DNA of 28,586 bases. Source: a virus (lineage: Duplodnaviria > Caudoviricetes). The DNA is taken from positions 1 to 28,586 of the IMG/VR virus record IMGVR_UViG_3300020043_002719, one strand, 5' to 3'. The position numbers were made by a program, and so were the translations under genes. A model generated the notes under the pieces. It was not told the origin of the DNA and ran no database searches. It was given only the letters and a program-made list of their open reading frames with translations. Shown here in pieces: positions 9,089-28,586 of this stretch (positions are counted from its first letter, which is position 1; every line of letters begins with the position of its first letter).

Positions 9089-9292
9089 ATGACACATTTA
9101 CCAACACCAACAGTCAATGAGGCAGTCCAAATCCTACGGGACAGGGATGAATTTAAAGCAGTAATTAAATTCATTAAAGACGAAAGAGAGAGGTTTTTCT
9201 CTGATCTTCGTCAGGTTGAGAATGAACGAGACGTAATGAAAATTGTAGGATCAGTCTCAACTCTTGATGAGTTACTTCAGATCCTCTCTTGA
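9089..9292 (+). CDS. Small helical hypothetical protein between portal and scaffold
   Basis: 67-aa ORF with an A-rich leader, at a position where podoviruses often carry a small helical protein. Confidence 0.7.
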   Translation: MTHLPTPTVNEAVQILRDRDEFKAVIKFIKDERERFFSDLRQVENERDVMKIVGSVSTLDELLQILS

Positions 9293-9318
9293 CAGATCTT
9301 GAGTTTCGCTTAATCACT
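9289..9318 (+). promoter_or_regulatory. Possible sigma70-type promoter for the intergenic RNA
   Basis: Perfect TTGACA (9289-9294), 16-nt spacer, TAATCA(CT); the -10 match is weak. Confidence 0.4.
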
Positions 9319-9319
9319 G

Positions 9320-9407
9320 TCCTGTCGGGAGTGGTTTCCCGCGTGTGTTATTGCATTGTGTTGTGTGTCTTGCCCTGGGGGGAGCAATCCTCTCAGGGCA
9401 TTTTCTT
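9320..9407 (+). ncRNA. Candidate trans-acting small RNA
   Basis: Non-coding. 5' hairpin cggga-GTGGTT-tcccg (9326-9341), GU-rich single-stranded core (9342-9370), 3' terminator. The core is complementary to early-gene leaders. The 5' end is estimated. Confidence 0.5.
9371..9407 (+). terminator. Intrinsic terminator
   Basis: 13-bp stem tgccctgggggga/tcctctcagggca with two G-U pairs (so it folds best as + strand RNA), GCAA tetraloop, then ttttctt. Confidence 0.8.
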
Positions 9408-9462
9408 GTACAATTGGTGCTGATTCTTGGGAGTACAGATTTTACCGATCCGCGCCAAATAG

Positions 9463-9510
9463 CGTCAAGATTATTTCTGCTTGACGGTAATACAGTATTA
9501 CCGTAATACT
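9463..9510. promoter_or_regulatory. Capsid-operon promoter region with palindromic operator-like sites
   Basis: TTGACG (9481-9486)-17 nt-TAATAC. Palindromes acggtaatac-a-gtattaccgt (9484-9504) and agtattac-c-gtaatact (9494-9510). Inverted pair cgtcaag/cttgacg (9463-9469/9480-9486). Confidence 0.6.
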
Positions 9511-9555
9511 CCAGTATCGCCTTCGCCAATGGCGTTGAATTGGTGTCCACAAAGC

Positions 9556-10632
9556 ATGAAAGCAACCGATCCATCCATCGCTGGGGATGAAAATCCAGTG
9601 TCAGACAACATCAGTTTTGAGGAGCTTATCGCTCAACGAACTGGAAAAGCTGCTGCCCGAACTGAACCGTCCGAACAATCAACAGAAGAACTAGAATCGT
9701 CAGATGAAGAATCCGAAGAAAACGATGAGCATGCCAGTCAAGAAGACGATGCCGGGTACGACGAAGAAGGTTCCGAAGAAGAGCGCGAAGATGGGCAAGA
9801 TGGGCTGCAAGAAGTAGACCTGTTGAATCTGTCTCCTGAGCAAATCCAGGAGCTTGCGAAATCAGCGAAAAGCCGGTTACTCGATGACCTTGGCAAGACT
9901 CGTAAAGAGAATCGCCAGATCAAAGAGGAGATCGCTCAACTGAAGGAGCAACTCCAAGGACAAGGTCAGAAGACAGTCAAGGAAATCCCAGACTCCGACA
10001 ACCCTTTCCGCGAACTCTCCTCACCGGACGAGATCAAGGCGAAGTACGACGAGATGGAGCGCACCTTGGAAACGACAGACGCACTCCTTGAGGAATACGA
10101 AGACTACGGACCAGATGATCTCATCACGGTAGGTAGCCAAGAGTTTTCCAAGAGGGACATCCGTAAAGCTAACCGGAATGCCCGTGAGGCAATTACCAAG
10201 TACCTACCCGCCCGACACCAGCAATTGGCCAAGGTGGCGCAGTACGAGGCACTTGCCCAGCAGTATTCCGAAGCAGCACGGAAGGAGGTTCCAGAGATCG
10301 AGGACGCAGAGTCCGAAGTTGGAAAGAACTTCCAGAGTCTACTTGCTGATCCGCTAGTTGGTCGAGTCCGAAAAGAAATCCCAGAACTGGGTATGCAGAT
10401 TGAGTACCTGTTGGCACATGCCGCCAGGTCGATCTTTGGGAAGAAATCCAAACCTATCCAAACCGGAGCAGGAACGAAGATGAAGGTGGAACCACCCGCT
10501 TCGCCTGTTGGGTCCGGGGCAGCTAGGTCTGGGAAGAATCCCAAGGGGAAAGTTCAAGATGCTTTCAACAGGTTTGAGAAATCGGGTGCTGTTGAAGATT
10601 GGGTTGCTGCTCGTATCGCCAAACTCCGCTAA
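9556..10632 (+). CDS. Capsid scaffolding protein
   Basis: Highly acidic N-terminal region and coiled coils, directly upstream of the capsid gene. ATG 9556 is preferred over TTG 9481, which lies in the promoter. Confidence 0.8.
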   Translation: MKATDPSIAGDENPVSDNISFEELIAQRTGKAAARTEPSEQSTEELESSDEESEENDEHASQEDDAGYDEEGSEEEREDGQDGLQEVDLLNLSPEQIQELAKSAKSRLLDDLGKTRKENRQIKEEIAQLKEQLQGQGQKTVKEIPDSDNPFRELSSPDEIKAKYDEMERTLETTDALLEEYEDYGPDDLITVGSQEFSKRDIRKANRNAREAITKYLPARHQQLAKVAQYEALAQQYSEAARKEVPEIEDAESEVGKNFQSLLADPLVGRVRKEIPELGMQIEYLLAHAARSIFGKKSKPIQTGAGTKMKVEPPASPVGSGAARSGKNPKGKVQDAFNRFEKSGAVEDWVAARIAKLR

Positions 10633-16757: not shown

Positions 16758-17345
16758 ATGACTAGCAACTCACGCATCAGAGAGATCCAAAGGAAGATTG
16801 GGGCAGAACCAGATGGGTTCTGGGGGCCAAAGTCTGTCACGGCTTGCCAAAAATATCTCAAAGGAATCTTGGATGAAAGCTACCGGGAGAGTGCAGAGGA
16901 TGCCCCTCCAGCCTCGGACGACAAGTCAATGGTGGCGCACTATGGGGAGTCAGGTGATGAGAAGAACCTGATCTACATACCGACAACCGATCTTGGTCTC
17001 CAGTACGACGGCAAGCCCGTCAAGATGATCCGCATCCACAAGAAAGCCGCAAGGAGCCTTTACCGGGCCTTGGAGGAGGTCTCCAAGAGCGAGTCAAAGT
17101 GGGTACTGAAGGAGTACGCCGGGTGCTACAATAACCGCAAGATGCGAGGTGGTAGACGACCCTCAAAACACGCTTGGGGAGTCGCCATCGACCTTTGCCC
17201 GGACGAGAACATGTTGAACGAGCATTGGCCTACCTCAGCGATAATGCCTTTTGAGGTCATGGAGATCTTCGCCAAGCATGGTTGGATGTCTGCCGGGGCA
17301 TTCTGGTCCAGGGACGCGATGCACTTTGAGCGAACTAGACCGTAG
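16758..17345 (+). CDS. Endolysin: M15-family peptidase with N-terminal peptidoglycan-binding motif
   Basis: IQRKIG..PDGFWGPKS; Zn motifs SKHAWGVAIDL and DAMHFE. Confidence 0.88.
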   Translation: MTSNSRIREIQRKIGAEPDGFWGPKSVTACQKYLKGILDESYRESAEDAPPASDDKSMVAHYGESGDEKNLIYIPTTDLGLQYDGKPVKMIRIHKKAARSLYRALEEVSKSESKWVLKEYAGCYNNRKMRGGRRPSKHAWGVAIDLCPDENMLNEHWPTSAIMPFEVMEIFAKHGWMSAGAFWSRDAMHFERTRP

Positions 17346-17553
17346 TGGTTGGCGTGTCGTACTCGACGTGCCTCCCGTAGTATTCTAGTTCCGCGTCTCT
17401 CCTCGCCTTCACCGCATCCTCCAGGTTCTGGAATTGACCAAGGAACAGGTTCTTCCCGTGCATCTTGATTTGCGCCTCCCACTTGGATCGCTTGCTCTTC
17501 CATGAGACTCCAGTGGTCCCGGAGCGATTGCTTTTGATTGGTTTTTTCCTCAT
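17335..17553 (-). CDS. Stand-alone AP2-domain protein
   Basis: NRSGTTGVSW...KWEAQI...LGQF..LEDAVKARRDAE. Confidence 0.8.
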   Translation of the reverse strand: MRKKPIKSNRSGTTGVSWKSKRSKWEAQIKMHGKNLFLGQFQNLEDAVKARRDAELEYYGRHVEYDTPTTTV

Positions 17554-17558
17554 TGCTT

Positions 17559-18110
17559 TTACCTAAAAGACCCCCAGTTGAAGTGCAGGCCAATCCCGTT
17601 CTCCTTGATCCTATCCACGACAGCAGGGGACAGTGCCTCGATGAACCTCTGCTTGTCGTAGTTGGAGATCAGGATGGTGGGTCTGGCGTCCATGTACCTA
17701 GCGTCGATGATCTGGGTGAGCTTCCGGTCCTCGAAAGGAGTCTCGCCACGCTCTTGGATCTCATCAATGACCAGAAGTGCCGCTTCGGACATGGAGCGTA
17801 TAATCGACTTTTCGGAGACCTCGGAGCGATCACGGAACGTATCACGAAGATCCATGAATAGGTTCACGGCAGTAGTGTAGATCCTAGGTAGATCCTTCTC
17901 GATCCCGGCCTGCTTGTAGGTGGATCGCGGGAACTTGCCGGCAAGCGCAAGCTCATACGCCATGCGGGTTTTGCCTGTCCCGTGACCACCGTACATGACG
18001 ACGATGCCTCCAGCCTGGAGCTTCTCAAGTGCCTTCTGCTGGTACAACAACCACCGATCCCCGGTCGCCTTCTCGCAACCTTTGTAGCGTGTCGGGAATC
18101 CGGTCATCAT
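17559..18110 (-). CDS. DnaC/IstB-like AAA+ ATPase
   Basis: Walker A GGHGTGKT, Walker B LLVIDE, IIDARY...PTILISN, VVDRI. Confidence 0.88.
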   Translation of the reverse strand: MMTGFPTRYKGCEKATGDRWLLYQQKALEKLQAGGIVVMYGGHGTGKTRMAYELALAGKFPRSTYKQAGIEKDLPRIYTTAVNLFMDLRDTFRDRSEVSEKSIIRSMSEAALLVIDEIQERGETPFEDRKLTQIIDARYMDARPTILISNYDKQRFIEALSPAVVDRIKENGIGLHFNWGSFR

Positions 18111-18820
18111 AGTGGTCCCTCATTTGCCTCTGGGTTGTACACAGACTCCGCGTAGGTCAAGTCATCGTGCGAGTCGAAGTCTGACTCTGAAAAGTCACAA
18201 CCTTGATGCTTCTCAATAAACGCGAACTCCTTATGATAAGCTAGCGCAGCATCATTGTACGCTTTGGCGGCATCCTCAATCGTATCGAAAATTCCAAGGT
18301 ACTTGTATTGACCTCCAACGGTGATCTCGGACTTCCATTTGTTCACGTTTTTGGCCCATGATACTCCCTTGTGTCCAGAGGTGTTGTTGGCTTGTTTGCC
18401 TCGATTCCTTTGATTTTCTGCGTTGGAGCATTCACGAAGGTTGGTGATCCTGTTGTCTGTCCTATCCATGTTCTTGTGGTCAAGACAGTCTTTCGGCCAA
18501 TCACCGTAATACATAGCCCATGCGACTCGGTGACTAAATACTTGGATTCGATCTACTACGACTTTTCTGTATCCTTGACCATTTAGATATCCAGCGATCT
18601 TCCCTGCTCTAATCTTTTTGTGATTTACTTTCCATGTTAATTCACCAGTCTCATGGTTGTACGAAAGCAATTCACGCAATCTGGAGATGCTAGGCAGATT
18701 CTCACTGCATGGTGGTCTTGGTAGTCCTGTTGGCTTGCGTCTGTGTTTAGAACTTGAGATTCGCTCTTTTGTGTTTCCCTCGGATTGTGTCAATGATACT
18801 GTACTTTCTTGCTGGTTCAT
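18107..18820 (-). CDS. HNH endonuclease with C-terminal AP2 domain
   Basis: LRELLSYNHETG, HRVAW, DHKNMDRTDNRITNLR, NTSGHKGVSW...YLGIF. ATG 18820 follows an AC-rich leader. Confidence 0.88.
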   Translation of the reverse strand: MNQQESTVSLTQSEGNTKERISSSKHRRKPTGLPRPPCSENLPSISRLRELLSYNHETGELTWKVNHKKIRAGKIAGYLNGQGYRKVVVDRIQVFSHRVAWAMYYGDWPKDCLDHKNMDRTDNRITNLRECSNAENQRNRGKQANNTSGHKGVSWAKNVNKWKSEITVGGQYKYLGIFDTIEDAAKAYNDAALAYHKEFAFIEKHQGCDFSESDFDSHDDLTYAESVYNPEANEGPL

Positions 18821-19091
18821 TGGTGTGTGGTTTCGGTTGTGCCTGTGGAGTTGGTTCGATCTCCTCGGATTGCGGTGTGTTGAGTAGTTTGACCAGAGCA
18901 TCAGAAGACGAAATGCCATCGCGCTCCGCCAGGTTGTTGATGCGCTTTACGGTTTCTGGAGGCAAGGCGAACGAGACCCTCACGGTATCTCGAAACTCCT
19001 TTCTTGGCCTGCCGGTAGACGTAAACCGGTAGGTGTCCCAGTTCATGGATTTGGTATTTAGCACACCATCCCAGTGGTTCTTCATACTCAT
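18747..19091 (-). CDS. Ribbon-helix-helix-like DNA-binding protein
   Basis: GRPRK...VRVSFALPPETVKRINNLAERDGISSSDALVKLL; ATGA overlap with the MazG-like gene. Confidence 0.7.
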   Translation of the reverse strand: MSMKNHWDGVLNTKSMNWDTYRFTSTGRPRKEFRDTVRVSFALPPETVKRINNLAERDGISSSDALVKLLNTPQSEEIEPTPQAQPKPHTNEPARKYSIIDTIRGKHKRANLKF

Positions 19092-19411
19092 TTGGCGTTC
19101 TTCACGAATGTTCCGTTGATCATGCGACCCTTGCGATCCTTGATCTCGTTCCATGCCTGCTCGACGCAATCCTCAAAGATGAGACCGGCACGTTCTGCAG
19201 CAAGCACCAGGCACACGGTGACATCCCCGATAGCGTCAGCAATCTCATGCTTGTCGTCATCATAGAGGGCATCAAATGCCTCCTGCAATTCCTCCTGCGC
19301 CTTGCTGAGTTGGCTACCAAGAGTGCCTTCGCCTTCTGGTCCGCAGATGTACCTATCGACCCCCCATTGGCGAATCTTTCCGATCAGTTCATTCATGTTA
19401 ACGTGTTTCAT
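19088..19411 (-). CDS. MazG-like nucleotide pyrophosphohydrolase
   Basis: KAQEELQE...DAIGD...AWNEIKDRKGRMINGTFVK. Confidence 0.88.
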   Translation of the reverse strand: MKHVNMNELIGKIRQWGVDRYICGPEGEGTLGSQLSKAQEELQEAFDALYDDDKHEIADAIGDVTVCLVLAAERAGLIFEDCVEQAWNEIKDRKGRMINGTFVKNAK

Positions 19412-19875
19412 TTGTTGTGTGTTTTGGTTCCGTAGTGCGCGATTAGTAATGCGTCAGCAGTTGCGTGGATCACCTTGAGGTGAGGGAACAACTCCTGTGC
19501 GCGGCGTTTACTTACGTTCTTGTCGCCGCCAGTCAAGCAGGAAAGTTCCTTCTGCCAGACTTGCGGTCTAACCCGCTCGAAAGGAATCCCTGCTGCGGTG
19601 AGTGCCATTTCAAGATGCCCGAATCCATTCCCAAACGTGAAGGCGGATTTCACGCCCATCTGCGGAGAGGAGTGGACCTGTTCGATGTAGGCGACATGAC
19701 CAAGCACTACCTTATCCAGACGTTGCCGTGGTTCACCTCCATCCCGGATGTCCAAGATTAGATCCCACAGATCCTGTAGCGTGTCGGGCATCTTCTCGAC
19801 GCATGCTTTCCCATCAGAGATCCATGCGATTCCTCCGTTAGCCCCAGGGTCAATCCCGATGATGCATTTGCTCAT
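19408..19875 (-). CDS. RuvC-like Holliday junction resolvase
   Basis: IIGIDPG, IEQV, SAFTFG, PQVWQK and ADALLIA motifs. Confidence 0.85.
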   Translation of the reverse strand: MSKCIIGIDPGANGGIAWISDGKACVEKMPDTLQDLWDLILDIRDGGEPRQRLDKVVLGHVAYIEQVHSSPQMGVKSAFTFGNGFGHLEMALTAAGIPFERVRPQVWQKELSCLTGGDKNVSKRRAQELFPHLKVIHATADALLIAHYGTKTHNK

Positions 19876-19879
19876 GGTT

Positions 19880-20143
19880 TTAGGTGTGAATGATGATTCT
19901 CTCGTTTGGTTCAGATGTGATCTTCGTGATCTTCTTTTTGGGCAGGTTCCTGTGGAAGATATGAAGCGAATCGCCTACTCCAATGAACGGTCCACCGTCT
20001 GGGTCAACGAATAGCAGCGAGTCCTCATCTGCGGTCATGCCAAATCGCATGAAGTCATTGAATGTGTAGAACTCCCACTTTCCATCATCCAGCTTTTTCA
20101 GTATGCAGCTTGGACCAAATCTCCCTTTGATTTCGCATTTCAT
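19880..20143 (-). CDS. Hypothetical protein
   Basis: Tiles the operon with an ATGA overlap; FVDPDGGPFI motif. Confidence 0.7.
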   Translation of the reverse strand: MKCEIKGRFGPSCILKKLDDGKWEFYTFNDFMRFGMTADEDSLLFVDPDGGPFIGVGDSLHIFHRNLPKKKITKITSEPNERIIIHT

Positions 20144-20352
20144 TCTTCGTCCTCCTGCGGTTTGGTCGTTGGGTACAGCAACTCGTCAAGATCGCGGGTG
20201 CCGTACCCGTAGGCGTTCATCAATGGTATGACGACCTGACCGAGCAAATCTTCATAGGATGGTAGATCATCATCAGTCTCAAGGGTCAGCTTGGTAATGG
20301 ACATGCCGATCTTGAACGGTGGCTTATTGGTTTGTTCGATTGTGATTCTCAT
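20140..20352 (-). CDS. Hypothetical protein
   Basis: ATGA overlaps at both ends. Confidence 0.7.
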   Translation of the reverse strand: MRITIEQTNKPPFKIGMSITKLTLETDDDLPSYEDLLGQVVIPLMNAYGYGTRDLDELLYPTTKPQEDEE

Positions 20353-20543
20353 GCTGCTGCTGGTTTAGGTTTGCGTATCCATTGGTTGTAGTAATCGCGG
20401 CGACGTTCACGAACACGATCAGAGTTTACATCGTAGTATTGTCGGCGCAGTTGCGATATGCATGGCTTGCATTGCCACTTGTTCTCGTAGTACTGGTCAA
20501 GTGGTTTGTCTTCAGCGCAGTGGCTGCATTTATGTGTGGTCAT
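20349..20543 (-). CDS. Small C4 zinc-binding protein
   Basis: KCSHC...KP...CKPC followed by an Arg/Tyr-rich helix. Confidence 0.7.
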   Translation of the reverse strand: MTTHKCSHCAEDKPLDQYYENKWQCKPCISQLRRQYYDVNSDRVRERRRDYYNQWIRKPKPAAA

Positions 20544-20713
20544 TTGTATTTTTGTTTGAATGCAATACAGGCTTGTTTCGCTTCCTCAAGGTCATCGAAC
20601 ATCCCAACCTGTCTGGTCCTGTTCCTAACCTTGATTCTTGCTCTCCATTTCCCTCCGGTCTTGTCCCAAGATACGCCTGGAACTCCAGAGGTGTTATCTT
20701 TGCGTAGCTTCAT
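20540..20713 (-). CDS. Stand-alone AP2-domain protein
   Basis: RKDNTSGVPGVSW...KWRARI...GMFDDLEEA; ATG 20713 overlaps the upstream stop. Confidence 0.8.
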   Translation of the reverse strand: MKLRKDNTSGVPGVSWDKTGGKWRARIKVRNRTRQVGMFDDLEEAKQACIAFKQKYK

Positions 20714-21090
20714 GGGAATATGATTTTCTTCATGTCGCATTTTAGGCATCCACCTTGCGGCAGTTCGCTTTGGCAATCGCACTCACTAATGCCGTGCCAG
20801 TACCGTGCGATCTCCTCGATCTGTGCAATCCTCTCAAGGAACAACTCACGTTCACAATTGGCCTTGGCGACAAAGTCCTCGACTAGCTTCGGGATTGTTT
20901 CGAGGAAATCAGAAGGGCTATGTTCCGTGCAATGCTCCCCAGTTCCAAGCGATTTCAGGATCTCTGGGAAGATGGAGCGAATCCTAGCGTGTTGGTCCCG
21001 GAGGTCGCAGTAAACACCGACAATGTGTGTACGGATGTCGTTAACAACGGTTTCGTGAGACTCGTAATGGATGTCTCCTGGTAGCTTCAC
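20710..21090 (-). CDS. Hypothetical protein
   Basis: GTGA-coupled, preceded by AAGGAGG; C-terminal CxC...CxxC. Confidence 0.65.
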   Translation of the reverse strand: MKLPGDIHYESHETVVNDIRTHIVGVYCDLRDQHARIRSIFPEILKSLGTGEHCTEHSPSDFLETIPKLVEDFVAKANCERELFLERIAQIEEIARYWHGISECDCQSELPQGGCLKCDMKKIIFP

Positions 21091-21440
21091 TTGCGTTCCT
21101 CCTTCAGATGTTCGTTAATCATTTCTGCGATTGCTTGTAACGCTCGCATTGGCAGATCTGCCGGGTGCGGTTCACCAATCTGCGTGATGTTGAAGATATC
21201 GCGCAGCAAATCGCTGGTGTCATTACACTTAAATGTCAGATCAACGCTCATGCGAGACGCCTCAATCAAACGCTTGTGCAAATCGACAGCCTTCTTGCGC
21301 CACTCATCGCGCTCGCGTTCCAGCGTTCTGGCTAATTCACATATGCGGCGGTAAGCCGTGAGTGGGGCGGAGTATTCCTCAATGCGGTGCGCATCCGTTT
21401 CCATCATTGCATCCGTTTCCGGTGTCATGCTGTTGCTCAT
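21087..21440 (-). CDS. TPETDA/LERERDE coiled-coil protein, copy 1
   Basis: Shares both motifs with 21636-21950; TAATG start at 21440. Confidence 0.7.
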   Translation of the reverse strand: MSNSMTPETDAMMETDAHRIEEYSAPLTAYRRICELARTLERERDEWRKKAVDLHKRLIEASRMSVDLTFKCNDTSDLLRDIFNITQIGEPHPADLPMRALQAIAEMINEHLKEERK

Positions 21441-21643
21441 TATTTCTCCTTCCATTTGAATTGTACTTTCTCGTTGTCGGTGATCACCGCGTCAACGTAG
21501 CCGCGATCGTATGCTTCCTTCATGGTTGCGCGGGTGTTTTGTTCAACGACCCACGGTAGGTGCGGGACGTACACTAATGCGATCAACGTCGCTGCGATCG
21601 ACCCCATCATCAGCCCGACAAAGAATCCTGATCCGTCACTCAC
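21440..21643 (-). CDS. Small membrane protein
   Basis: N-terminal TM segment (FFVGLMMGSIAATLIALVY) and EAYDRGY motif. Confidence 0.65.
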   Translation of the reverse strand: MSDGSGFFVGLMMGSIAATLIALVYVPHLPWVVEQNTRATMKEAYDRGYVDAVITDNEKVQFKWKEK

Positions 21644-21950
21644 TGCGTGCCTCCTTCAATTCTGCAAGTTCCTTGCGTAGGTCCTCGCGCTCAATCGTGC
21701 AGACAACACCATACTGGCACACCTCGATCAGTCGTTTGTTCAACTCGTCGAGTTCACGCCTCAGCTTCGCGTTGTCCTCCTTCATGACTCGCTTGTAGGC
21801 TTTCGCCTTGTCAACGGCGTCTAGTGCCTCGTCGCGCTCTCGCTCAAGTCGTCGGGAGAGGTTTAGCATCTCGAAATACTGACTCATCACATCGCGTGAC
21901 ATGCGCTTTTCATGCAGCGCATCAGTCTCCGGTGTCGGTCGATCAGTCAT
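21636..21950 (-). CDS. TPETDA/LERERDE coiled-coil protein, copy 2
   Basis: Shares motifs with 21087-21440; AAGGAG upstream. Confidence 0.7.
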   Translation of the reverse strand: MTDRPTPETDALHEKRMSRDVMSQYFEMLNLSRRLERERDEALDAVDKAKAYKRVMKEDNAKLRRELDELNKRLIEVCQYGVVCTIEREDLRKELAELKEARSE

Positions 21951-22155
21951 TGGTTTCTCCTTTCAGTTCGTTGATGAGTTCGTCTGCATTGTCACCATTC
22001 ACCAGTGCCTCGATCCAGTACACAGTGTTAAGGGTTGCGGTGTGTCGCCAACCGTTGTCCTCAAGACCGTCCATTTCCGCGCCTTGCCCAGTCGTCAGGC
22101 AACGGATCTTGCTGTCCTTGGCATAGACGAAGACGAATGTATCAGGAATAGTCAT
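21943..22155 (-). CDS. Hypothetical protein
   Basis: Coupled ORF with GGAGGT upstream. Confidence 0.65.
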   Translation of the reverse strand: MTIPDTFVFVYAKDSKIRCLTTGQGAEMDGLEDNGWRHTATLNTVYWIEALVNGDNADELINELKGETND

Positions 22156-22331
22156 GGCTGCACCTCCAGTCTTTCCGCTTGCTTGTACATCGCTTCCGCC
22201 ATCATGTCATAGTAGCGGCAAAGAAGCAAAGCGACTGCCTGCTCTGTGGTTTTCTCCTTGGTCTGGTAGAACTCTATCGGAATCATTGCGCTGATCCTTC
22301 CAAGCATTTGAGAGTCTTTTTCGTAGTTCAT
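22152..22331 (-). CDS. Hypothetical protein
   Basis: ATG 22331 overlaps the upstream TGA; AAGGAG upstream. Confidence 0.6.
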   Translation of the reverse strand: MNYEKDSQMLGRISAMIPIEFYQTKEKTTEQAVALLLCRYYDMMAEAMYKQAERLEVQP

Positions 22332-22480
22332 GCGTTCTCCTTTCTCCAGAAGCACACCAGTGCCTTGATGCGCTCAATCCTCGCCTTGCGCTGAGTCTCT
22401 CGCTCGTTGCGTTCGGCAAGTGCCTTGAACAATTCGTATGTAAGTGCAGGTGTCTCCCTGCCGATTGTGATGGTTTTCAT
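22328..22480 (-). CDS. Hypothetical protein (50 aa); best predicted target of the candidate sRNA
   Basis: MKTITIGRETPALTYELFKALAERNERETQRKARIERIKALVCFWRKENA; leader aaaccacgacacataacaca. Not in the supplied ORF track. Confidence 0.65.
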   Translation of the reverse strand: MKTITIGRETPALTYELFKALAERNERETQRKARIERIKALVCFWRKENA

Positions 22481-22498
22481 TGTGTTATGTGTCGTGGT

Positions 22499-22705
22499 TT
22501 ACTCTTCGTTCCAGAGTCTGATCTTTAGCTTCTTGGCAAGCCCGACAATGGCATTGTCCTTATCCTTGTCACGCCAGAAATGCTTTGACCCTGATTTATA
22601 GGCGATCCATTCCCCACTGTCTGCTGCCTGCACCTGGATGTGGTGCTTACGCATCCACTTGAGGCGAGGAGACAGTGACTCCATGTCGCTAAATAGCTCA
22701 CTCAT
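22499..22705 (-). CDS. Hypothetical protein
   Basis: Coupled ORF; SPRLKWM...LWNEE. Confidence 0.7.
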   Translation of the reverse strand: MSELFSDMESLSPRLKWMRKHHIQVQAADSGEWIAYKSGSKHFWRDKDKDNAIVGLAKKLKIRLWNEE

Positions 22706-22920
22706 CGTTCTGTGATCGTGTTGAGTTCCGATTCATGCCTCCAGATCTCGACTGATTCTGGGTTAGCAAACTCGACCAGCACGATGTCGCACGTTTTGAG
22801 GTCATCGAATGCCCTGTTGAACCATTCCATCTGTTCCGCGTTCTTTCTGGAGTAAGGGGTGGTGAGCGGGATGTACCCGCTCTCCCTTGCCTCCATTGGT
22901 GATAATGTGAGGACTCTCAT
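22702..22920 (-). CDS. Hypothetical protein
   Basis: Tiles the operon downstream of the SSB-like gene. Confidence 0.7.
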   Translation of the reverse strand: MRVLTLSPMEARESGYIPLTTPYSRKNAEQMEWFNRAFDDLKTCDIVLVEFANPESVEIWRHESELNTITER

Positions 22921-22923
22921 GGA

Positions 22924-23232
22924 TCAGAAAGGAATCCCGGAATCATCGGGTTCATCCCATCCAAGGTTATCGTTCTTGGCAGGAGCATTCTGTTGCTGCG
23001 GTGCAGTACCTGGACGTTCCTTGATCTTCGCGTTCCCAAGGATCGGTCCCTTGTCACGCTCGACTCCTTGCGGAACCTTCTGGGTCACGAATCCATCGTT
23101 CCCGTATTGGTCCTTCTCGTCACGGATGAGGACGGCAAGGTTCAGATAGGTGCGCCCGGTTTTGGGAGACTTGTACATCAATCCCTTCTCGATTTTGCTC
23201 ACATCAATGCTCAATTCGATTACTTGTTTCAT
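22924..23232 (-). CDS. Putative ssDNA-binding protein
   Basis: Small beta-rich body, flexible linker and acidic tail ending DDSGIPF; adjacent to the RecE/RecT-like pair. Confidence 0.65.
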   Translation of the reverse strand: MKQVIELSIDVSKIEKGLMYKSPKTGRTYLNLAVLIRDEKDQYGNDGFVTQKVPQGVERDKGPILGNAKIKERPGTAPQQQNAPAKNDNLGWDEPDDSGIPF

Positions 23233-23240
23233 GTTTTTGT

Positions 23241-24056
23241 TTATTGGTTTTCTTGTTTCGCCCATGCTGGGAGATCTACTTCGACGACACCATCAATCGC
23301 CTTTGGCCAATTCTTGGTGGCTACGCACTTTTGCCAGCGCAGGATGGCATTCATGTACGCCACTCGACCCGCTTGGATGAGGTCATCAGAGAGCGAGATC
23401 CATGCGGTCTCAAACGGTTCGGTGTCTTCGACGAACAGGAGCCAAAACTGGTCACGATTTTCGCCAGACGCTGCGTTCCAGAGGTCGAGGTACAACGCTG
23501 CCTGCCAGTGGTATCCGCGCCGGATGATGTTGCCCTGGAGTTGCGCCACAGACTCAACGCTGCCGGTGGTCTTGAGGTCCACCAGTTGAGGGCCTGATTC
23601 CGGGACGATGTCGATCATCCCGCGAACCTTGGTGTCACCGATCTGGTTGTAGACCGCAACCTCGTAGTCCTTCTTCCCGAGGGAGAAGAACGTCTGGTCC
23701 TCCTCGATGACGCTCACACAGTTGGCAGCACGGTCGATGTCCTTCTGGGTGATCACGCTTTTGCCGTCAGCGATCTGCTGTTCCTTCCATTCCCGTGCTT
23801 CGGTCTTACGAAAGTCGTCGTAGGGACTGACTGCGAACAGCTTGTCGGTCTCGTTTTCCGTGAGGAGCATGGAGTGGACGAGTGTACCCCATTCCATTGC
23901 CTTGGTGGGTTTGAACGCCGGCCCGTACTTCCACTTGAAAGGCCTCTGGTTAAACGCCCACAGCATGGACTTGGATACCTCCCCGGCCAGATCCCGAGGG
24001 GTTGCCCCCCCGAGATAGTAGTCGAGTCCGAGATTCTTGATGATTTTTGCGCTCAT
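23241..24056 (-). CDS. RecE/exonuclease VIII-like PD-(D/E)XK nuclease (DUF3799-like)
   Basis: SKSML, GTLVH, RGMID...VDLKT, GYHWQAALY. Confidence 0.85.
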   Translation of the reverse strand: MSAKIIKNLGLDYYLGGATPRDLAGEVSKSMLWAFNQRPFKWKYGPAFKPTKAMEWGTLVHSMLLTENETDKLFAVSPYDDFRKTEAREWKEQQIADGKSVITQKDIDRAANCVSVIEEDQTFFSLGKKDYEVAVYNQIGDTKVRGMIDIVPESGPQLVDLKTTGSVESVAQLQGNIIRRGYHWQAALYLDLWNAASGENRDQFWLLFVEDTEPFETAWISLSDDLIQAGRVAYMNAILRWQKCVATKNWPKAIDGVVEVDLPAWAKQENQ

Positions 24057-24835
24057 TGGTCGTCCTCCGCCATTGCCATTGCCTCGTCCAAGATCGACTC
24101 CAGAGACATGGGTTTTCTCCTTGGCTTTTCTTGCTGCACTGGAGCCTCCACAACGGGTTCCACGGCAACCTCTGCGACAACCTCCACGGGTTCCGGTTTA
24201 GGCTCAGGAATAGCCTCTGGAGCGGGTTGCTGGGCGAATGGGTTCTGGCGCGGCGTGACGTTCCGTGGTGGTTCTGCGAAGTCGCGGACTTCATCCTGGG
24301 TGTAGAACCCGAGGGAGAGATCCGATGCGTAGGCGCGACTCCAGAACGATGCAGCACGGTAGCGGAGCATTTGACCCGGCATCGTAAGCCACTTCGATCC
24401 GTTCTTGGTACTCCAGCCCTCTTTCTTTGCCATCTCCAAGGTGATCTTCTCACCCTTGAGTTCTTGCCCCGATGCCTTATCGGTGGCAACAGCGTAGCAG
24501 GATGTAGGTGCGTCCTCGTCGTCGAAGACAAAGCGGAGTGGGGTATAGCGACCGCATGAATTGATCATGCCGATCAGTGCCGTTGCGCTCCAGCTTGGGC
24601 GACCGTGGATGATCGCCAGATTTTGGCAGACCATCAAGGGATCGAGGCGGGTGCGTTTCGCCACGTTGATGGCGATGCCGCAGTTGGCAACGTTCCCCTG
24701 GAAGTCCTTGGGAACGAGTGAGGATGAGGCGAGCATTTTCGCCTGCCGTTGGGCAAGCTCGAAAGCCTGCGTTTCAGCTTGGACGAGGAGCATTGCGCTC
24801 CCCTCGTTATTGGTGGTGATGTCGGTGTTTTCCAT
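24053..24835 (-). CDS. RecT-like ssDNA-annealing protein
   Basis: LVPKDFQG, IHGRPS, MAKKEGW...W.TMP.QMLRYRA..F..R; coupled to the exonuclease. Confidence 0.82.
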   Translation of the reverse strand: MENTDITTNNEGSAMLLVQAETQAFELAQRQAKMLASSSLVPKDFQGNVANCGIAINVAKRTRLDPLMVCQNLAIIHGRPSWSATALIGMINSCGRYTPLRFVFDDEDAPTSCYAVATDKASGQELKGEKITLEMAKKEGWSTKNGSKWLTMPGQMLRYRAASFWSRAYASDLSLGFYTQDEVRDFAEPPRNVTPRQNPFAQQPAPEAIPEPKPEPVEVVAEVAVEPVVEAPVQQEKPRRKPMSLESILDEAMAMAEDDQ

Positions 24836-24836
24836 T

Positions 24837-24998
24837 CTAGTGTGTGTGTTTATGGATTCTTTTTATGATTCCCTCGCTGATCCCCACCAGTGCCGCGCAG
24901 AACATTGCGACGAACACCAGCAAGATAAGCGGAGAGTGCATGATCAGGAGTGCAGCATCATTCGCTGCATTCCACAGTGTCTTGGGTTTCGGGTTCAT
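24837..24998 (-). CDS. Small membrane protein (53 aa)
   Basis: MNPKPKTLWNAANDAALLIMHSPLILLVFVAMFCAALVGISEGIIKRIHKHTH; one TM helix; fills the gap. Confidence 0.5.
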   Translation of the reverse strand: MNPKPKTLWNAANDAALLIMHSPLILLVFVAMFCAALVGISEGIIKRIHKHTH

Positions 24999-25155
24999 TG
25001 GGGATCTTGGTTGCTTCCAAGGTCTCGATCACCCACTCAAAAGCAGCGGATGCCAGTGCCGGGTGAATGATCACCGTCTGCTGGCGTTTGAGCTTTTTCA
25101 AGTGCTTGATTTTGACGACCACCTCGATGTGGTCTGGTTTTGCGATGCGTCCCAT
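24958..25155 (-). CDS. Hypothetical protein
   Basis: ATG 25155 follows a long AC-rich leader and a putative promoter. Confidence 0.65.
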   Translation of the reverse strand: MGRIAKPDHIEVVVKIKHLKKLKRQQTVIIHPALASAAFEWVIETLEATKIPNEPETQDTVECSE

Positions 25156-25196
25156 GTGTGTGGTTTGGTTTGTGTTGTGTGCCGATTGGCGATGGA

Positions 25197-25224
25197 AAAA
25201 TGCCTGATTCCTGGAAAGAGTCAA
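25197..25224 (-). promoter_or_regulatory. Putative promoter of the recombination operon
   Basis: TTGACT-16 nt-CATTTT in an intergenic gap with an AT-rich upstream tract; same layout as 28467-28494. Confidence 0.5.
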
Positions 25225-25239
25225 AACAATTTTCAAGAA

Positions 25240-26406
25240 TTATTCGTGTAATGTTTGCATTAACGTGCGGAATGCCTTCTTTGCGGTAGCCGGCACTACT
25301 CCATTTCCGAGGAGTCGCAGTTCGTCTGTGCGATTGTCACAGGTGACGTACAGCTTGGCATCGTCCATCCGATCGGCAGGCCCATCAGCGTCTCGACCCA
25401 GCGCGGGTTGAGCTTCCCCCTCTGCGTCCGCTCCACCATCGGCGTGAGTTCCTTGTATTCCCGTTCCTCGTTCCCGCGACCGCTCTTGTGATCGCGTGCT
25501 GTCGGCGTTGCCCAAGCCTTCCCAACTTGGGTCTCTAGGTTTGGAAACCTTTTCAGATTGTTTGCTGACTCCGCTGTGATCGTCGCCGCCATTGCTGAAC
25601 AACTGCGTGGTGTCGCCCATTGTTTTTGTTCCTGCATCACCGCAATCGGAAGTGGGCGATGCAGGTTGATCCCTTCTGCCTGCTTCCGATCCCGTCTCGC
25701 AGTCCAAGTCTCCAGTGACTCGTTGATAAGCCCATCCATGCTTCTTGCCGTCGGCCACGACTCTTGGCGGTTCCCAATCGTGCTGTTGTTCGCCTGGTCG
25801 GCTTGGCCAAACATCGCTGCCATCGTTGCAAGCGGGATACTGTTGCGATTCATCTGCGATCCTCCAATCGAGTTCTTCGACTCGTTGACGCTGATCGTAG
25901 GCCAAGATAAACACCCGCTTGCGCTGATGAGGCGCGCAGACTTCACGCGCTGAGAATATTCCCCACGACACCTTGTAACCCAGCTCTTCCAAATCGCTGA
26001 TGACGCTGGAGAGTCCCAGCGAAATGTGTCCTTCGACGTTTTCAAAGAAGCACATTCTTGGTTGAAGAAGTCGAATCCCATCTGCGATCCAAGGCCAGAG
26101 GTGTCTTGGGTCGTCCTTGCCTGCTCGCTTTCCTGCGGCAGAGAATGGTTGGCAGGGATATCCGCCAGTGAGGATGTCCACCTTTCCACAAAACTCTGCC
26201 CATGGGAAGGTTTTAAGATCCGACCAAATAGGTGCTGGGTCCATGAGTCCCGCCTCCATTTTTGCGACCAAGTTCGCGCAGGCGAAGGCCTCGATCTCAC
26301 AAAGAGCGATTGTGCGCATATCTGGGATGACTCGTTTGAGTCCAAGTTCAATGCCTCCGTATCCGGCACAAAGACCGATGTGTGTAGTTGTTTGGGTAGT
26401 ATCCAC
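25240..26406 (-). CDS. C5 cytosine DNA methyltransferase, catalytic (alpha-like) polypeptide
   Basis: Motif I LCAGYGG, IV GGYPCQPFS, VI ENV, VIII HQRKRVF, X LGNGVVP; no recognisable motif IX. GTG 26406 is the likely start. Confidence 0.88.
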   Translation of the reverse strand: MDTTQTTTHIGLCAGYGGIELGLKRVIPDMRTIALCEIEAFACANLVAKMEAGLMDPAPIWSDLKTFPWAEFCGKVDILTGGYPCQPFSAAGKRAGKDDPRHLWPWIADGIRLLQPRMCFFENVEGHISLGLSSVISDLEELGYKVSWGIFSAREVCAPHQRKRVFILAYDQRQRVEELDWRIADESQQYPACNDGSDVWPSRPGEQQHDWEPPRVVADGKKHGWAYQRVTGDLDCETGSEAGRRDQPASPTSDCGDAGTKTMGDTTQLFSNGGDDHSGVSKQSEKVSKPRDPSWEGLGNADSTRSQERSRERGTGIQGTHADGGADAEGEAQPALGRDADGPADRMDDAKLYVTCDNRTDELRLLGNGVVPATAKKAFRTLMQTLHE

Positions 26407-26408
26407 AT
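25296..26408 (-). CDS. Overlapping-frame (beta-like) methyltransferase polypeptide carrying motif IX
   Basis: 370 codons open in an alternative frame; four W(P/A)T repeats and LNPRWVETLMGLPIGWT; TAATG-coupled start. Confidence 0.72.
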   Translation of the reverse strand: MWILPKQLHTSVFVPDTEALNLDSNESSQICAQSLFVRSRPSPARTWSQKWRRDSWTQHLFGRILKPSHGQSFVERWTSSLADIPANHSLPQESEQARTTQDTSGLGSQMGFDFFNQECASLKTSKDTFRWDSPASSAIWKSWVTRCRGEYSQRVKSARLISASGCLSWPTISVNESKNSIGGSQMNRNSIPLATMAAMFGQADQANNSTIGNRQESWPTARSMDGLINESLETWTARRDRKQAEGINLHRPLPIAVMQEQKQWATPRSCSAMAATITAESANNLKRFPNLETQVGKAWATPTARDHKSGRGNEEREYKELTPMVERTQRGKLNPRWVETLMGLPIGWTMPSCTSPVTIAQTNCDSSEME

Positions 26409-26704
26409 TATTGTTTGTTTTCGGTTTCAAGAAATCCCTCCAGTACATTGCTTGCCTTGAGCGCGAACCAAGGTTCGTGTTCGACTAGGTAGCGTACCCG
26501 GTCCCTAGCGTTCACCACGGTGTAGTGGTAGCGGTTGAATCTGCGTGCGGTGGCTGCATGGGTGTCGTTGTCGCTCCAGATCGCCATTGCAAGCATCCGC
26601 GCCAGTGATGGGTTGGATGTCCTGGCTGGAGACAGGATCTCCTCGACGGTCGTGCCGAATTCCTCCGCGCAGATACCCAACAGTCGTTTGAATTCATCGT
26701 CCAT
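26408..26704 (-). CDS. Stand-alone DnaA C-terminal (domain IV)-like HTH protein
   Basis: EEFGTTVEEILSPAR...ARMLAM...RRFNRYHYTVVNA matches the DnaA domain IV pattern (RDHxTV). Confidence 0.75.
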   Translation of the reverse strand: MDDEFKRLLGICAEEFGTTVEEILSPARTSNPSLARMLAMAIWSDNDTHAATARRFNRYHYTVVNARDRVRYLVEHEPWFALKASNVLEGFLETENKQ

Positions 26705-26879
26705 AGGTACGGTTCCAGTGCAGAAGTTCTTTGGCTTGCTCCCGTGGGATTCTGATCACTGCTGGACCAACGTATAGATCTGCGGCGAACTTAAGCCCAT
26801 TGCGGCATCGTGAAGTCACAAGATGCGTTGACCTATCCAGCCGGTATTGGTTAGTGGTTCTTGCTCTGTAGATTTTCAT
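26694..26879 (-). CDS. Hypothetical protein
   Basis: ATGA-coupled, AC-rich leader. Confidence 0.65.
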   Translation of the reverse strand: MKIYRARTTNQYRLDRSTHLVTSRCRNGLKFAADLYVGPAVIRIPREQAKELLHWNRTYGR

Positions 26880-27145
26880 TGGTTCGTGTTCTTACTCAGT
26901 GCGTCGAGTAGTTTGTGGATTGCGTTGTGTGAGATCGAGGCGTTCCTCCGTACCATGTCGCACCAGTACGATGCGCTGATGCCGGTGAGTGCCGCTAGGT
27001 GTCTTGGTTTGAGTTCGTGTTGTTCTTTGATGTCCTGCAAAAGTTGGATTGATCGACCTATATAAGACTCTTTTTTGGTGTTCCAACTGGTCTGTTCATC
27101 CGACCAGTTCTTGAGTAGTGACCGTAGTTCATCATGGGTAGTCAT
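26876..27145 (-). CDS. XRE/Cro-like HTH protein
   Basis: IKEQHELKPRHLAALTGISASYWCDMVR. Confidence 0.7.
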   Translation of the reverse strand: MTTHDELRSLLKNWSDEQTSWNTKKESYIGRSIQLLQDIKEQHELKPRHLAALTGISASYWCDMVRRNASISHNAIHKLLDALSKNTNQ

Positions 27146-27473
27146 GCCTGGTGTCCTCAAGGTAGCTCTCCCTGATGTCATTCCACTCCGGCGAGTCAAT
27201 CGGGATTGGGACGTTAAGCTCGATCCCGAGGATCTCTGCGGACTCCAGTGCCATGCCGAGGTTCATCCACGGGTGCGCCTTGTCGAACGCGTAGTCGAGC
27301 CGCCAGCAGGACTCAAGCGTGGACCTGCGTTGGTAGTCGAGACACCGCTTATCACTGGTCACATCTAGCAGGTAGTCCGCGACCTCCTGTGCTTGCTCCT
27401 GGGCCATGCACGGTGGGCATCCGAGGTCCACAAGCAGGCATGCGATTCGGTTTATGTGTGGGTCGATGGTCAT
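27132..27473 (-). CDS. Hypothetical protein
   Basis: ATGA-coupled ORF tiling the early operon. Confidence 0.6.
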   Translation of the reverse strand: MTIDPHINRIACLLVDLGCPPCMAQEQAQEVADYLLDVTSDKRCLDYQRRSTLESCWRLDYAFDKAHPWMNLGMALESAEILGIELNVPIPIDSPEWNDIRESYLEDTRHDYP

Positions 27474-27754
27474 TGGTTTGTGTCTAATGTTGCGAAGTAT
27501 TCAAATTCTCTCCTGTTTTGATCCTCCCACTTCTGGGTATTCTTCTTCATGCGCTGGATCTGGTCATCCGAAATGATCATCCAGTGACCGGCATCCCTCG
27601 CGGTGACGTAGCAGTCTGGATCTCCGACTGTGCCGCAGAACGAGCATTCTGGGCAGATGCAGCGATGGTCCGGTTCGCCGCAGATCCAGCAATAGCAGTC
27701 CTCATCTGGAGGTCCAGAACATCCTGGGGGATAGCTCCATCCGAAAATTCCCAT
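27470..27754 (-). CDS. Cys-rich putative zinc-binding protein
   Basis: GWSYPPGC...CYCWIC...CICPECSFC...GDPDC; ATG 27754 follows an AC-rich leader. Confidence 0.7.
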   Translation of the reverse strand: MGIFGWSYPPGCSGPPDEDCYCWICGEPDHRCICPECSFCGTVGDPDCYVTARDAGHWMIISDDQIQRMKKNTQKWEDQNRREFEYFATLDTNQ

Positions 27755-27803
27755 TGGTTCGTGTGGTTTGTGGTTTACCGGGGATCGGACCCGGCTTTGT
27801 TTA

Positions 27804-28148
27804 TCAGAGCATCCCCTTGTCAATCTTGGCAGCGTACTCCTTAAGGGATTGCGATGCACGGTGGAGAATATCTTCGCGGAGTTTCCACGCCTGATCCTTA
27901 GCTTCCTGGATCAGCTTCTCGCAATACTTCTTCGTTTCCGCTTCTGTCTTGCGTGCATCCTCACGGGCCTTGATGACCATCTCTTTAGCTTCTGAGATGG
28001 ACACCGCAGCGGTCCCCACTGGGTAGTCCGATCGGATGTCCATCTGGATGAACGGGATTTGCTCGTTGAGCCATGTTCCCGCGTAGGAATCAGGGCCGAG
28101 CTTGTTTGCTGCGTCGATCAGGATTTCGATTTCTTGGTTCTTGGTCAT
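27804..28148 (-). CDS. Hypothetical coiled-coil protein
   Basis: ATG 28148 follows gaaccgtaaaccgaaacacacc. Confidence 0.7.
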   Translation of the reverse strand: MTKNQEIEILIDAANKLGPDSYAGTWLNEQIPFIQMDIRSDYPVGTAAVSISEAKEMVIKAREDARKTEAETKKYCEKLIQEAKDQAWKLREDILHRASQSLKEYAAKIDKGML

Positions 28149-28179
28149 GGTGTGTTTCGGTTTACGGTTCAGGAAAGAT

Positions 28180-28431
28180 TCAGACCCAGCCAATGGCGAC
28201 CTGTTTGTAGTCGTTGAGGTTCTCACTGGGGTAGCTTGCCAGCATCCATTGCTGCCACCCTGCTTTGTACTTGCTGTAAGCCTTTCGAGCGTCCTCGATC
28301 GAGGCACAGAACACCGCGAAGCCGCATGGCTTGTCGAGGTCTTCAAAGTGCAAGGCAATGGTCAAGCCCGAGCGGATCGCGGCGATCATCTGGCTTGCGG
28401 TTGACTGGGTTCCGGTGGTTACGGTTTGCAT
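28180..28431 (-). CDS. Hypothetical protein, first gene after the right-end promoter
   Basis: ATG 28431 follows gaaccgtaaaccacaacacgct. Confidence 0.65.
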   Translation of the reverse strand: MQTVTTGTQSTASQMIAAIRSGLTIALHFEDLDKPCGFAVFCASIEDARKAYSKYKAGWQQWMLASYPSENLNDYKQVAIGWV

Positions 28432-28466
28432 AGCGTGTTGTGGTTTACGGTTCGGGTTACGGGTGA

Positions 28467-28494
28467 AGAATGGTCTGGATTTCGTGGCAATCAA
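28467..28494 (-). promoter_or_regulatory. Putative early promoter
   Basis: TTGATT-16 nt-CATTCT with A-tract-rich upstream sequence. Confidence 0.5.
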
Positions 28495-28586
28495 GAAAAT
28501 TCTGTGCTTTTGTGAAGATTTTTTCGTGCATCGTTTGCACTTTGATTGTGGTCATATAGGGGGATAAATTTCCATGCGGTTTCTAC

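Follow-up and report, generated by a model that had tools for sequence, protein, structure and literature searches.

The locus and its genomic setting

The window analysed here is the whole stretch of 28,586 nucleotides of IMGVR_UViG_3300020043_002719, a 28.6 kb record of an uncultured aquatic phage; because relatives rated complete are ~37-43 kb, it is probably incomplete. Its + strand carries a virion arm encoding terminase, portal, scaffold, capsid, tail and endolysin proteins, and its - strand carries an early arm (17335-28586) encoding RecT, exonuclease VIII, and DnaC-like, MazG-like and HNH proteins. Two styles of initiation occur in the early arm: overlapping early genes often carry GGAG-type Shine-Dalgarno (SD) words (8 of the 32 early leaders), and free-standing early genes use A/C-rich leaders without SD. 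At the contig end, positions 1-115 repeat 502-616 in inverted orientation (99%), which probably arose as an artefact of assembly or amplification.

In the interval between the portal region and the scaffold gene lies p67, a conserved hypothetical gene of 67 amino acids (9089..9292, + strand), delimited by its ORF and aligned homologues, whose product has no PHROG or Pfam match. Its TGA stop falls within a -35-like box, TTGACA, and the sRNA-like unit described below sits between this stop and the promoter-like site of the scaffold-capsid operon (9481..9510, + strand). The latter, located by a promoter scan, is distinct from the unit's own, and a -35-like word upstream of scaffold was present, by a permissive test, in 61 of the 62 unique loci examined. 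Positions 9439-9510 of the window hold back-to-back promoter-like sites, a minus site at 9468-9439 and the plus site at 9481-9510; a short palindrome in the spacer of the plus site is a possible operator, and the minus site could yield an RNA antisense to the unit.

A search for the host in a genome collection gave one distant MAG contig, and the RecT homologues and their clusters carry no taxon. For C75C1, the annotated phage nearest to this one, no host is recorded and no paper of relevance was found, and blastn of the region against annotated phages returned short chance matches only.

Architecture of the predicted small RNA

The sequence-only reading of this DNA had proposed a non-coding unit composed of TTGACA, a short hairpin, a GU-rich core and a terminator specific to the + strand. 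TTGACA is indeed present at 9289..9294 on the + strand, where its overlap with the p67 stop across loci marks it as the predicted -35 box. A candidate -10 region follows at 9311..9317 (+), suggested by its preservation in a strain variant and by a weak A/T bias across clusters; it was not called by a sigma-70 scan, which gave no promoter at 9289 because this -10 is non-canonical. The predicted small RNA of ~85 nt occupies 9321..9407 (+), its start (~9322) being placed by promoter spacing. Its fold begins with a 5' hairpin (9326..9341, +) whose G/U-rich loop, GUGGUU, is complementary to AACCAC in five early leaders. A single-stranded U/G-rich core then follows as the predicted pairing region (9342..9370, +), with CAU at 9354-9356, and terminator scan and fold both place an intrinsic terminator-like hairpin, with a GNRA loop, two G-U pairs and a U-tract, at 9371..9407 (+).

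The proposed layout was confirmed. The fold of the whole unit beats 200 of 200 dinucleotide shuffles (z -3.95) and the terminator at 9371-9400 folds more strongly on the + strand (-24.3) than on the - strand (-15.6). The 5' loop needs revision: it measures 4 nt in the minimum free energy fold, but relatives break the top stem pair, and the real loop is therefore probably ~8 nt. This loop is kept in L001, L063, L178 and strain variants. Searches of Rfam gave no match at gathering score anywhere in the window, the GcvB family included, one chance miRNA match within 9250-9560 (E 2.7), and none at E <= 1 for 18 loci.

Conservation of the unit in related phages

Searches with the capsid, p67 and the p67 alignment yielded 196 loci with p67; only the best 80 of 374 viral and the best 80 of 259 metagenomic p67 matches were used, so the sample favours close relatives. 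A unit, parsed as TTGAC followed by a hairpin that folds at or below -17 kcal/mol and ends in a U-rich tail, was found at the portal-scaffold interval in 169 of the 196 p67 loci among the matches listed, giving 93 unique RNAs in 17 sequence clusters. The layout proposed for the window recurs in related phages: TTGAC is followed by a 5' hairpin that varies, an unpaired U/G-rich stretch and the terminator. The RNAs of the 17 cluster representatives are 71-102 nt long, and in their folds two stem-loops flank an unpaired U/G-rich region. Mean column identity is 53% among eight closer units, and RNA family searches based on sequence miss such genes, as their lack of an Rfam match illustrates. A literature search, with limited coverage of subscription journals, returned no description of this p67-adjacent unit family.

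The 27 loci without a parsed unit comprise 18 with an empty slot, 8 in which TTGAC stands at the stop but the locus ends early or falls under the thresholds, and one (L019) with linker and terminator and no TTGAC. Although p67 varies in length, its stop shares bases with TTGAC in 147 of 169 unit loci, versus 0 of 18 empty slots; in 13 of the 169 TTGAC lies 88-295 nt downstream of the stop, behind an inserted ORF where inspected. The unit is gained or lost as a block, as the 18 empty-slot loci illustrate. On a quick tree of 51 capsid rows, presence of the unit takes 4 changes to explain, which is consistent with an old unit that was lost a few times.

The search for reads of this locus turned up no run recorded as RNA, and the contigs aligned to the window gave strain variants only, a kind of material from which strand and RNA ends cannot be read. 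One variant differs at 10 of the 16 spacer positions 9295-9310, with the -35 box and 9311-9319 unchanged and the GNRA terminator loop kept; across strain variants, 9343-9370 shows one deletion and zero listed substitutions.

The terminators also reveal polarity. In the 19 sequences of another cluster, each of the 14 terminator pairs stays intact throughout (19 x 14 cells, 0 broken); 3 pairs carry double changes, and single changes move among G-C, A-U and G-U only, never producing A-C on the + strand. The terminators of all 17 representatives fold better on the + strand, on which they had been chosen beforehand. Judged from these comparisons, the structure of the unit is specific to the + strand.

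The open strand and its predicted targets in the window

The open part of the units, loop plus linker, consists of 56% U, 24% G, 10% A and 10% C (U+G 80%). CAU is the top of all 64 trinucleotides there, with 13 occurrences versus 2.1 expected (0 of 2000 mononucleotide shuffles). Dinucleotide shuffles retain CAU (12.6 versus 13) because most CA and AU steps sit within CAU, and they are therefore uninformative as a control for this enrichment. CAU is found in 11 of the 17 cluster representatives and is missing from the other 6.

Complementarity was evaluated against 52 hand-curated starts in the window (32 early leaders, 20 late). Each of the matches reported earlier was recovered. The core at 9354-9369 matches 22478-22493 at 15 of 16 positions, and the single difference is a G-U pair for a + strand RNA, so that the first predicted target, the leader and AUG of a 50-aa early gene (22480-22328), would form 16 pairs at 22478..22493 (-). 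The second predicted target is the leader of a 65-aa early gene (25155-24958) at 25160..25183 (-), where the 12/12 match at 25170-25181 extends through a U-G pair to 14 core pairs (25170-25183) and the loop finds AAACCAC at 25160-25166, in collinear order with the core match; this leader may thus be bound in a bipartite manner by core and loop. Its core site spans -28 to -15 and leaves the AUG uncovered. Weaker predicted targets are the leader of the MazG-like gene 19411-19088, with a 10/10 match at 19413..19422 (-), and the leader and AUG-CAA start of the first early-arm gene, 28431-28180, with a split match across the start at 28426..28442 (-). AACCAC, the complement of the loop, occurs in 5 of 32 early and 0 of 20 late leaders, and CACAC in 7 of 32 early versus 0 of 20 late.

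Among the 52 curated starts, the core scores best on the 25155 and 22480 leaders, and a scan of both arms in 50-nt windows puts its top five on these same two sites. The best site was matched by 1 of 300 shuffles and, with accessibility, by 1 of 200 that kept dinucleotides and 2 of 200 that kept mononucleotides, figures unadjusted for the fact that the unit had been picked beforehand for its matches. The mean over all early starts is not better than in shuffles (44/300; with accessibility 26/200), nor is the count of sites at or below -8 kcal/mol (8 versus 5.3 in shuffles; 26/200), and early starts are not better than the early-arm background (p 0.26). The window therefore supports two strong and a few modest sites, and no class-wide effect beyond composition. 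Compared with shuffled controls, the 22480 and 25155 sites stand and the early class as a whole does not, so the proposal that one RNA blocks early genes in general through the leaders they share is not supported in that form; two or three sites stand out. What is supported of the original sRNA claim is a self-contained + strand unit of conserved layout, with an open strand of anti-AUG and anti-A/C-leader character whose predicted fit is to starts, those of early genes more than those of late ones.

In L001 and L139-141, a 1-nt insertion interrupts the 16-pair helix when judged against the window's 22480 leader, while bringing a start of the 28431 type into better register, as read from the sequence. 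A search of viral contigs returned no relatives of the genes targeted at 28431, 22480 and 25155.

Predicted targets in related phages

The analysis was extended to 30 records of relatives, with genes from a leader-blind caller that recovered 43 of the 52 curated window starts. G029, which has no parsed unit, was left out of all target scans; G019, G020 and G027, with little early arm, were left out of the accessibility-aware scan, and G021, for the same reason, out of the comparison of own with foreign genomes. An energy-only scan of 25 genomes was weak: the best-scoring site coincided with a start in 4 of them (1.7 expected), as did 12 of 125 top-five sites (8.6 expected). The accessibility-aware scan, designed after this result, required perfect helices and charged the opening of both RNAs. 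Of 22 genomes, 9 then had their best site at a start, against 1.65 by area and 1.9 in shuffles; of 110 top-five sites, 27 fell at starts (8.2 by area, 11.5 for shuffles).

Against 12 composition-matched shuffles per genome, the best start site was better in 19 of 22 genomes (p 1e-4) and the best non-start site in 14 of 22 (p 0.04); in G005, G014 and G021 the real RNA does not beat its shuffles. The RNA fits its own genome better than those of other clades in 11 of 12 clades (p 0.005), or 10 of 11 without the window, the clades being not fully independent; for G004, G005, G014 and G028, foreign genomes fit as well or better. The gain over shuffles is -2.7 kcal/mol at own starts versus -1.0 at foreign starts. 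The own-genome excess, which lies in exact matches, could also stem from local duplication or a shared leader style. The argument from wobble, namely that differences fall where G-U pairs would form on the + strand RNA, stands for the two window sites (22480, 25155) and fails across the family, where the own-genome excess is equal for G-U and A-C rules.

The top-4 targets include 55 of 556 early-strand versus 29 of 625 late-strand genes, labels that are wrong for one-strand genomes. An SD-like word precedes 1 of 84 top-4 targets versus 77 of 1097 others, and the AUG is covered by 22 of 84 top sites, with CAU doing the pairing in 9 of these; shuffles cover it in 75 of 504 cases (p 0.016). In the sister phage (L063 with L002), which has two UUGCAUAGUGUU copies, the best predicted pairing runs over a start codon and comprises 13 pairs; the gene homologous to 22480 does not figure in that phage's four best targets. 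From clade to clade the top targets change, and no recurrent orthologous target emerged.

Two further candidates were set aside. The ssDNA-annealing genes, considered as a conserved target, had the highest mean rank, but the RNA of the same genome was not consistently the best there. The G028 unit can pair with its own terS coding region (L267, ~1320-1350) over ~27 nt, at -41 kcal/mol by energy only and -19.6 with accessibility; this pairing needs the 5' hairpin opened and is weaker in the sister genomes G007 and G008.

Comparison with known small RNAs

The comparisons with GcvB, DapZ and the csRNAs draw on PMC9299463, PMC3091779, PMC7821165 and PMC4098024. GcvB of enterobacteria has a G/U-rich R1 seed (PMC9299463) and silences through ACA-containing enhancer elements (PMC3879156). 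Like GcvB, the unit has an open G/U-rich strand. Pairing of this strand with C/A-rich (ACA) elements at or upstream of several starts is a prediction on which the scans are divided, the accessibility-aware ones of relatives being positive and the energy-only scan and the early class in the window giving little. Unlike GcvB, it is phage-encoded and 70-100 nt long, turns over in sequence between clades, often carries CAU, and has targets that are predicted only; it has no Rfam match and is not a member of the GcvB family.

The csRNAs of streptococci use CAU as an anti-AUG in 53 of 61 cases (PMC3091779). The unit resembles them in having two stem-loops, an unpaired anti-start region between them, a promoter-like site of its own, and CAU (11 of 17 representatives). 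The csRNAs are C/U-rich, anti-SD and controlled by CiaR, whereas the unit is U/G-rich, fits SD-less leaders, has a TTGAC-type promoter-like site and is viral. No anti-SD sequence was found in its unpaired region, given an open strand with 10% C and top targets that avoid SD-like starts.

DapZ, a Type I 3'UTR-derived sRNA, has a G/U-rich seed. It represses oppA and dppA, as GcvB does, and is expressed from a promoter at the end of the upstream gene with a terminator shared with the operon, an arrangement that the unit shares at the level of prediction. Unlike DapZ, the unit is optional and stays intact behind inserted ORFs, and the two have no sequence relation.

Among phages, the unit resembles StxS, PreS (LPR1) and SviR in being a short trans-acting RNA encoded by a phage or satellite, if its predicted action is correct. 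StxS arises from a late promoter-terminator pair, and StxS, PreS and SviR act on specific host, toxin or rival-phage transcripts, whereas the unit is predicted to mirror the starts of its own genome. Unlike the lambdoid PR'/tR' arrangement (6S/StxS), the late operon here has its own promoter-like site, and no dependence on terminator read-through is apparent from sequence. Few phage sRNAs have known targets, and those compared here act on host, toxin or rival-phage transcripts; a 2024 review considers such phage and satellite RNAs little explored.

Proposed mechanism and alternative explanations

With its observed layout, its conservation under free turnover of sequence, its + strand polarity, its CAU enrichment and its complementarity to leaders, the unit is very probably a real, conserved sRNA gene. 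The reading preferred here, somewhat more likely than not, is that of a phage-encoded, GcvB/csRNA-like anti-start sRNA that represses a few of the phage's own, mostly early, genes. Host RNA polymerase would start near 9322 from TTGACA and stop at 9407, leaving a U/G-rich, often CAU-bearing strand held open between the 5' hairpin and the terminator hairpin. This strand would pair with accessible A/C-rich, SD-less leaders, sometimes across the AUG, and by analogy with GcvB the pairing would hinder 30S loading on a handful of early genes; at the 25155 leader, core and loop would bind in collinear order. The likely best candidate targets here are the genes starting at 22480 and 25155, followed by those at 19411 and 28431.

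A bolder version is tentative: a late-arm sRNA, rewritten in each lineage to mirror its own SD-less early leaders and start codons, would silence early translation in trans and partly run the early-to-late switch, and it may also target host or rival-phage mRNAs of the same leader style. The early-to-late role would be read solely from the predicted identity of the targets. If it were true, a widespread aquatic phage family would run its early-to-late switch partly by RNA. Since structure and anti-start character persist and the sequence is rewritten, the units offer natural compensatory pairs for testing, and the family may serve as a handle on the control of SD-less, A/C-rich leaders.

The same anti-start base pairing may have been selected against mRNAs of the host or of competing phages, in which case matches to the own genome would reflect a shared leader style. 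Real RNAs beat shuffles on foreign phage starts in 10 of 12 clades (by the -1.0 kcal/mol given above), some genomes lack a good own site, no own target is conserved, and known phage sRNAs such as PreS and SviR act on host or rival genomes. This reading is nevertheless unlikely in view of the better fit to the own genome in 11 of 12 clades and of the 14-16 pair helices within the window.

It is also unlikely that the unit only ends the terminase-portal-p67 operon, as its 3' part and terminator, or forms a promoter-terminator leader of the PR'/tR' kind, with a short RNA that is a by-product or binds protein without pairing to mRNA. The unit does sit at the operon end, the lambdoid PR'-tR' pair makes a comparable short RNA, energy-only targeting was weak, and in distant relatives the terminator comes with a short U/G run but without a clear TTGAC of its own. 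However, scaffold has its own -35-like word in 61 of 62 loci, opposite-strand insertions can put as much as 2.1 kb before it, and the 18 empty-slot loci work without any unit. No antiterminator was recognized among 54 ORFs scanned in a window that may be incomplete, and neither the CAU enrichment nor the own-genome fit would be explained.

The preferred + strand reading leaves one older alternative, that the minus strand is the functional one, as a leader-ATG minigene, a ribosome decoy or a decayed inverted early cassette. The minus strand does resemble an early leader plus ATG, the promoter-like site at 9468-9439 points that way, relatives show opposite-strand genes inserted just behind the unit, and a hairpin often precedes early genes. 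However, the minus-strand ORFs that start at the CAT measure 2-117 aa, bear no relation to one another and do not occur in 6 of 17 clusters; only 18 of 62 loci have a TTGAC on the minus strand within 130 nt; and in G002 and G003, where nearly all genes lie on one strand, CAU lies on that strand. The hairpin in question, whose loop resembles a tRNA T-loop, has the sense orientation before early starts at 16 of 29 distinct sites and the antisense one at 1. The L016 unit ends in this hairpin, which there too has the sense orientation relative to the unit, and since it stands in sense on the + strand of the L012/L016 unit, leader and hairpin were not inverted together. Because of these results and the terminator pairing, with its G-U and never A-C variation on the + strand, the minigene or inverted-cassette reading is very unlikely to hold.

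Additional elements around the unit

T-loop-like hairpins lie 26-41 nt upstream of early starts, at 27777-27795 (-) in the window and in many relatives (for example L233, L234, L241, L244, L257, L261 and L263), including genomes without a unit; they are possible processing or stability signals of early cassettes.

In distant relatives (L039-L057, 42-44% capsid identity), a terminator with a short U/G-rich run follows the gene at the p67 position, upstream of scaffold, with no clear TTGAC of its own; this arrangement may be a simpler form of the unit. In the stretch that separates the unit from the scaffold promoter, L003, L004 and L011-L017 carry a conserved segment of 600-700 nt with short tandem repeats and no convincing ORF, and other clades have opposite-strand genes there (L015, L068). 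As arranged in these loci, the slot is an insertion hotspot.

An optional hairpin module of ~30 nt is nearly identical in the 5' part of the units of L071, L096, L091 and L099, and a variant of it occurs in L012 and L016; its presence in units of different clusters suggests exchange between lineages. Additionally, L233 and L267 (G007 and G028) contain a second unit-like element, antisense inside an early-strand ORF and conserved in both genomes, which consists of TTGCGT, a U/G-rich strand with CAU, a hairpin and a U-rich tail.
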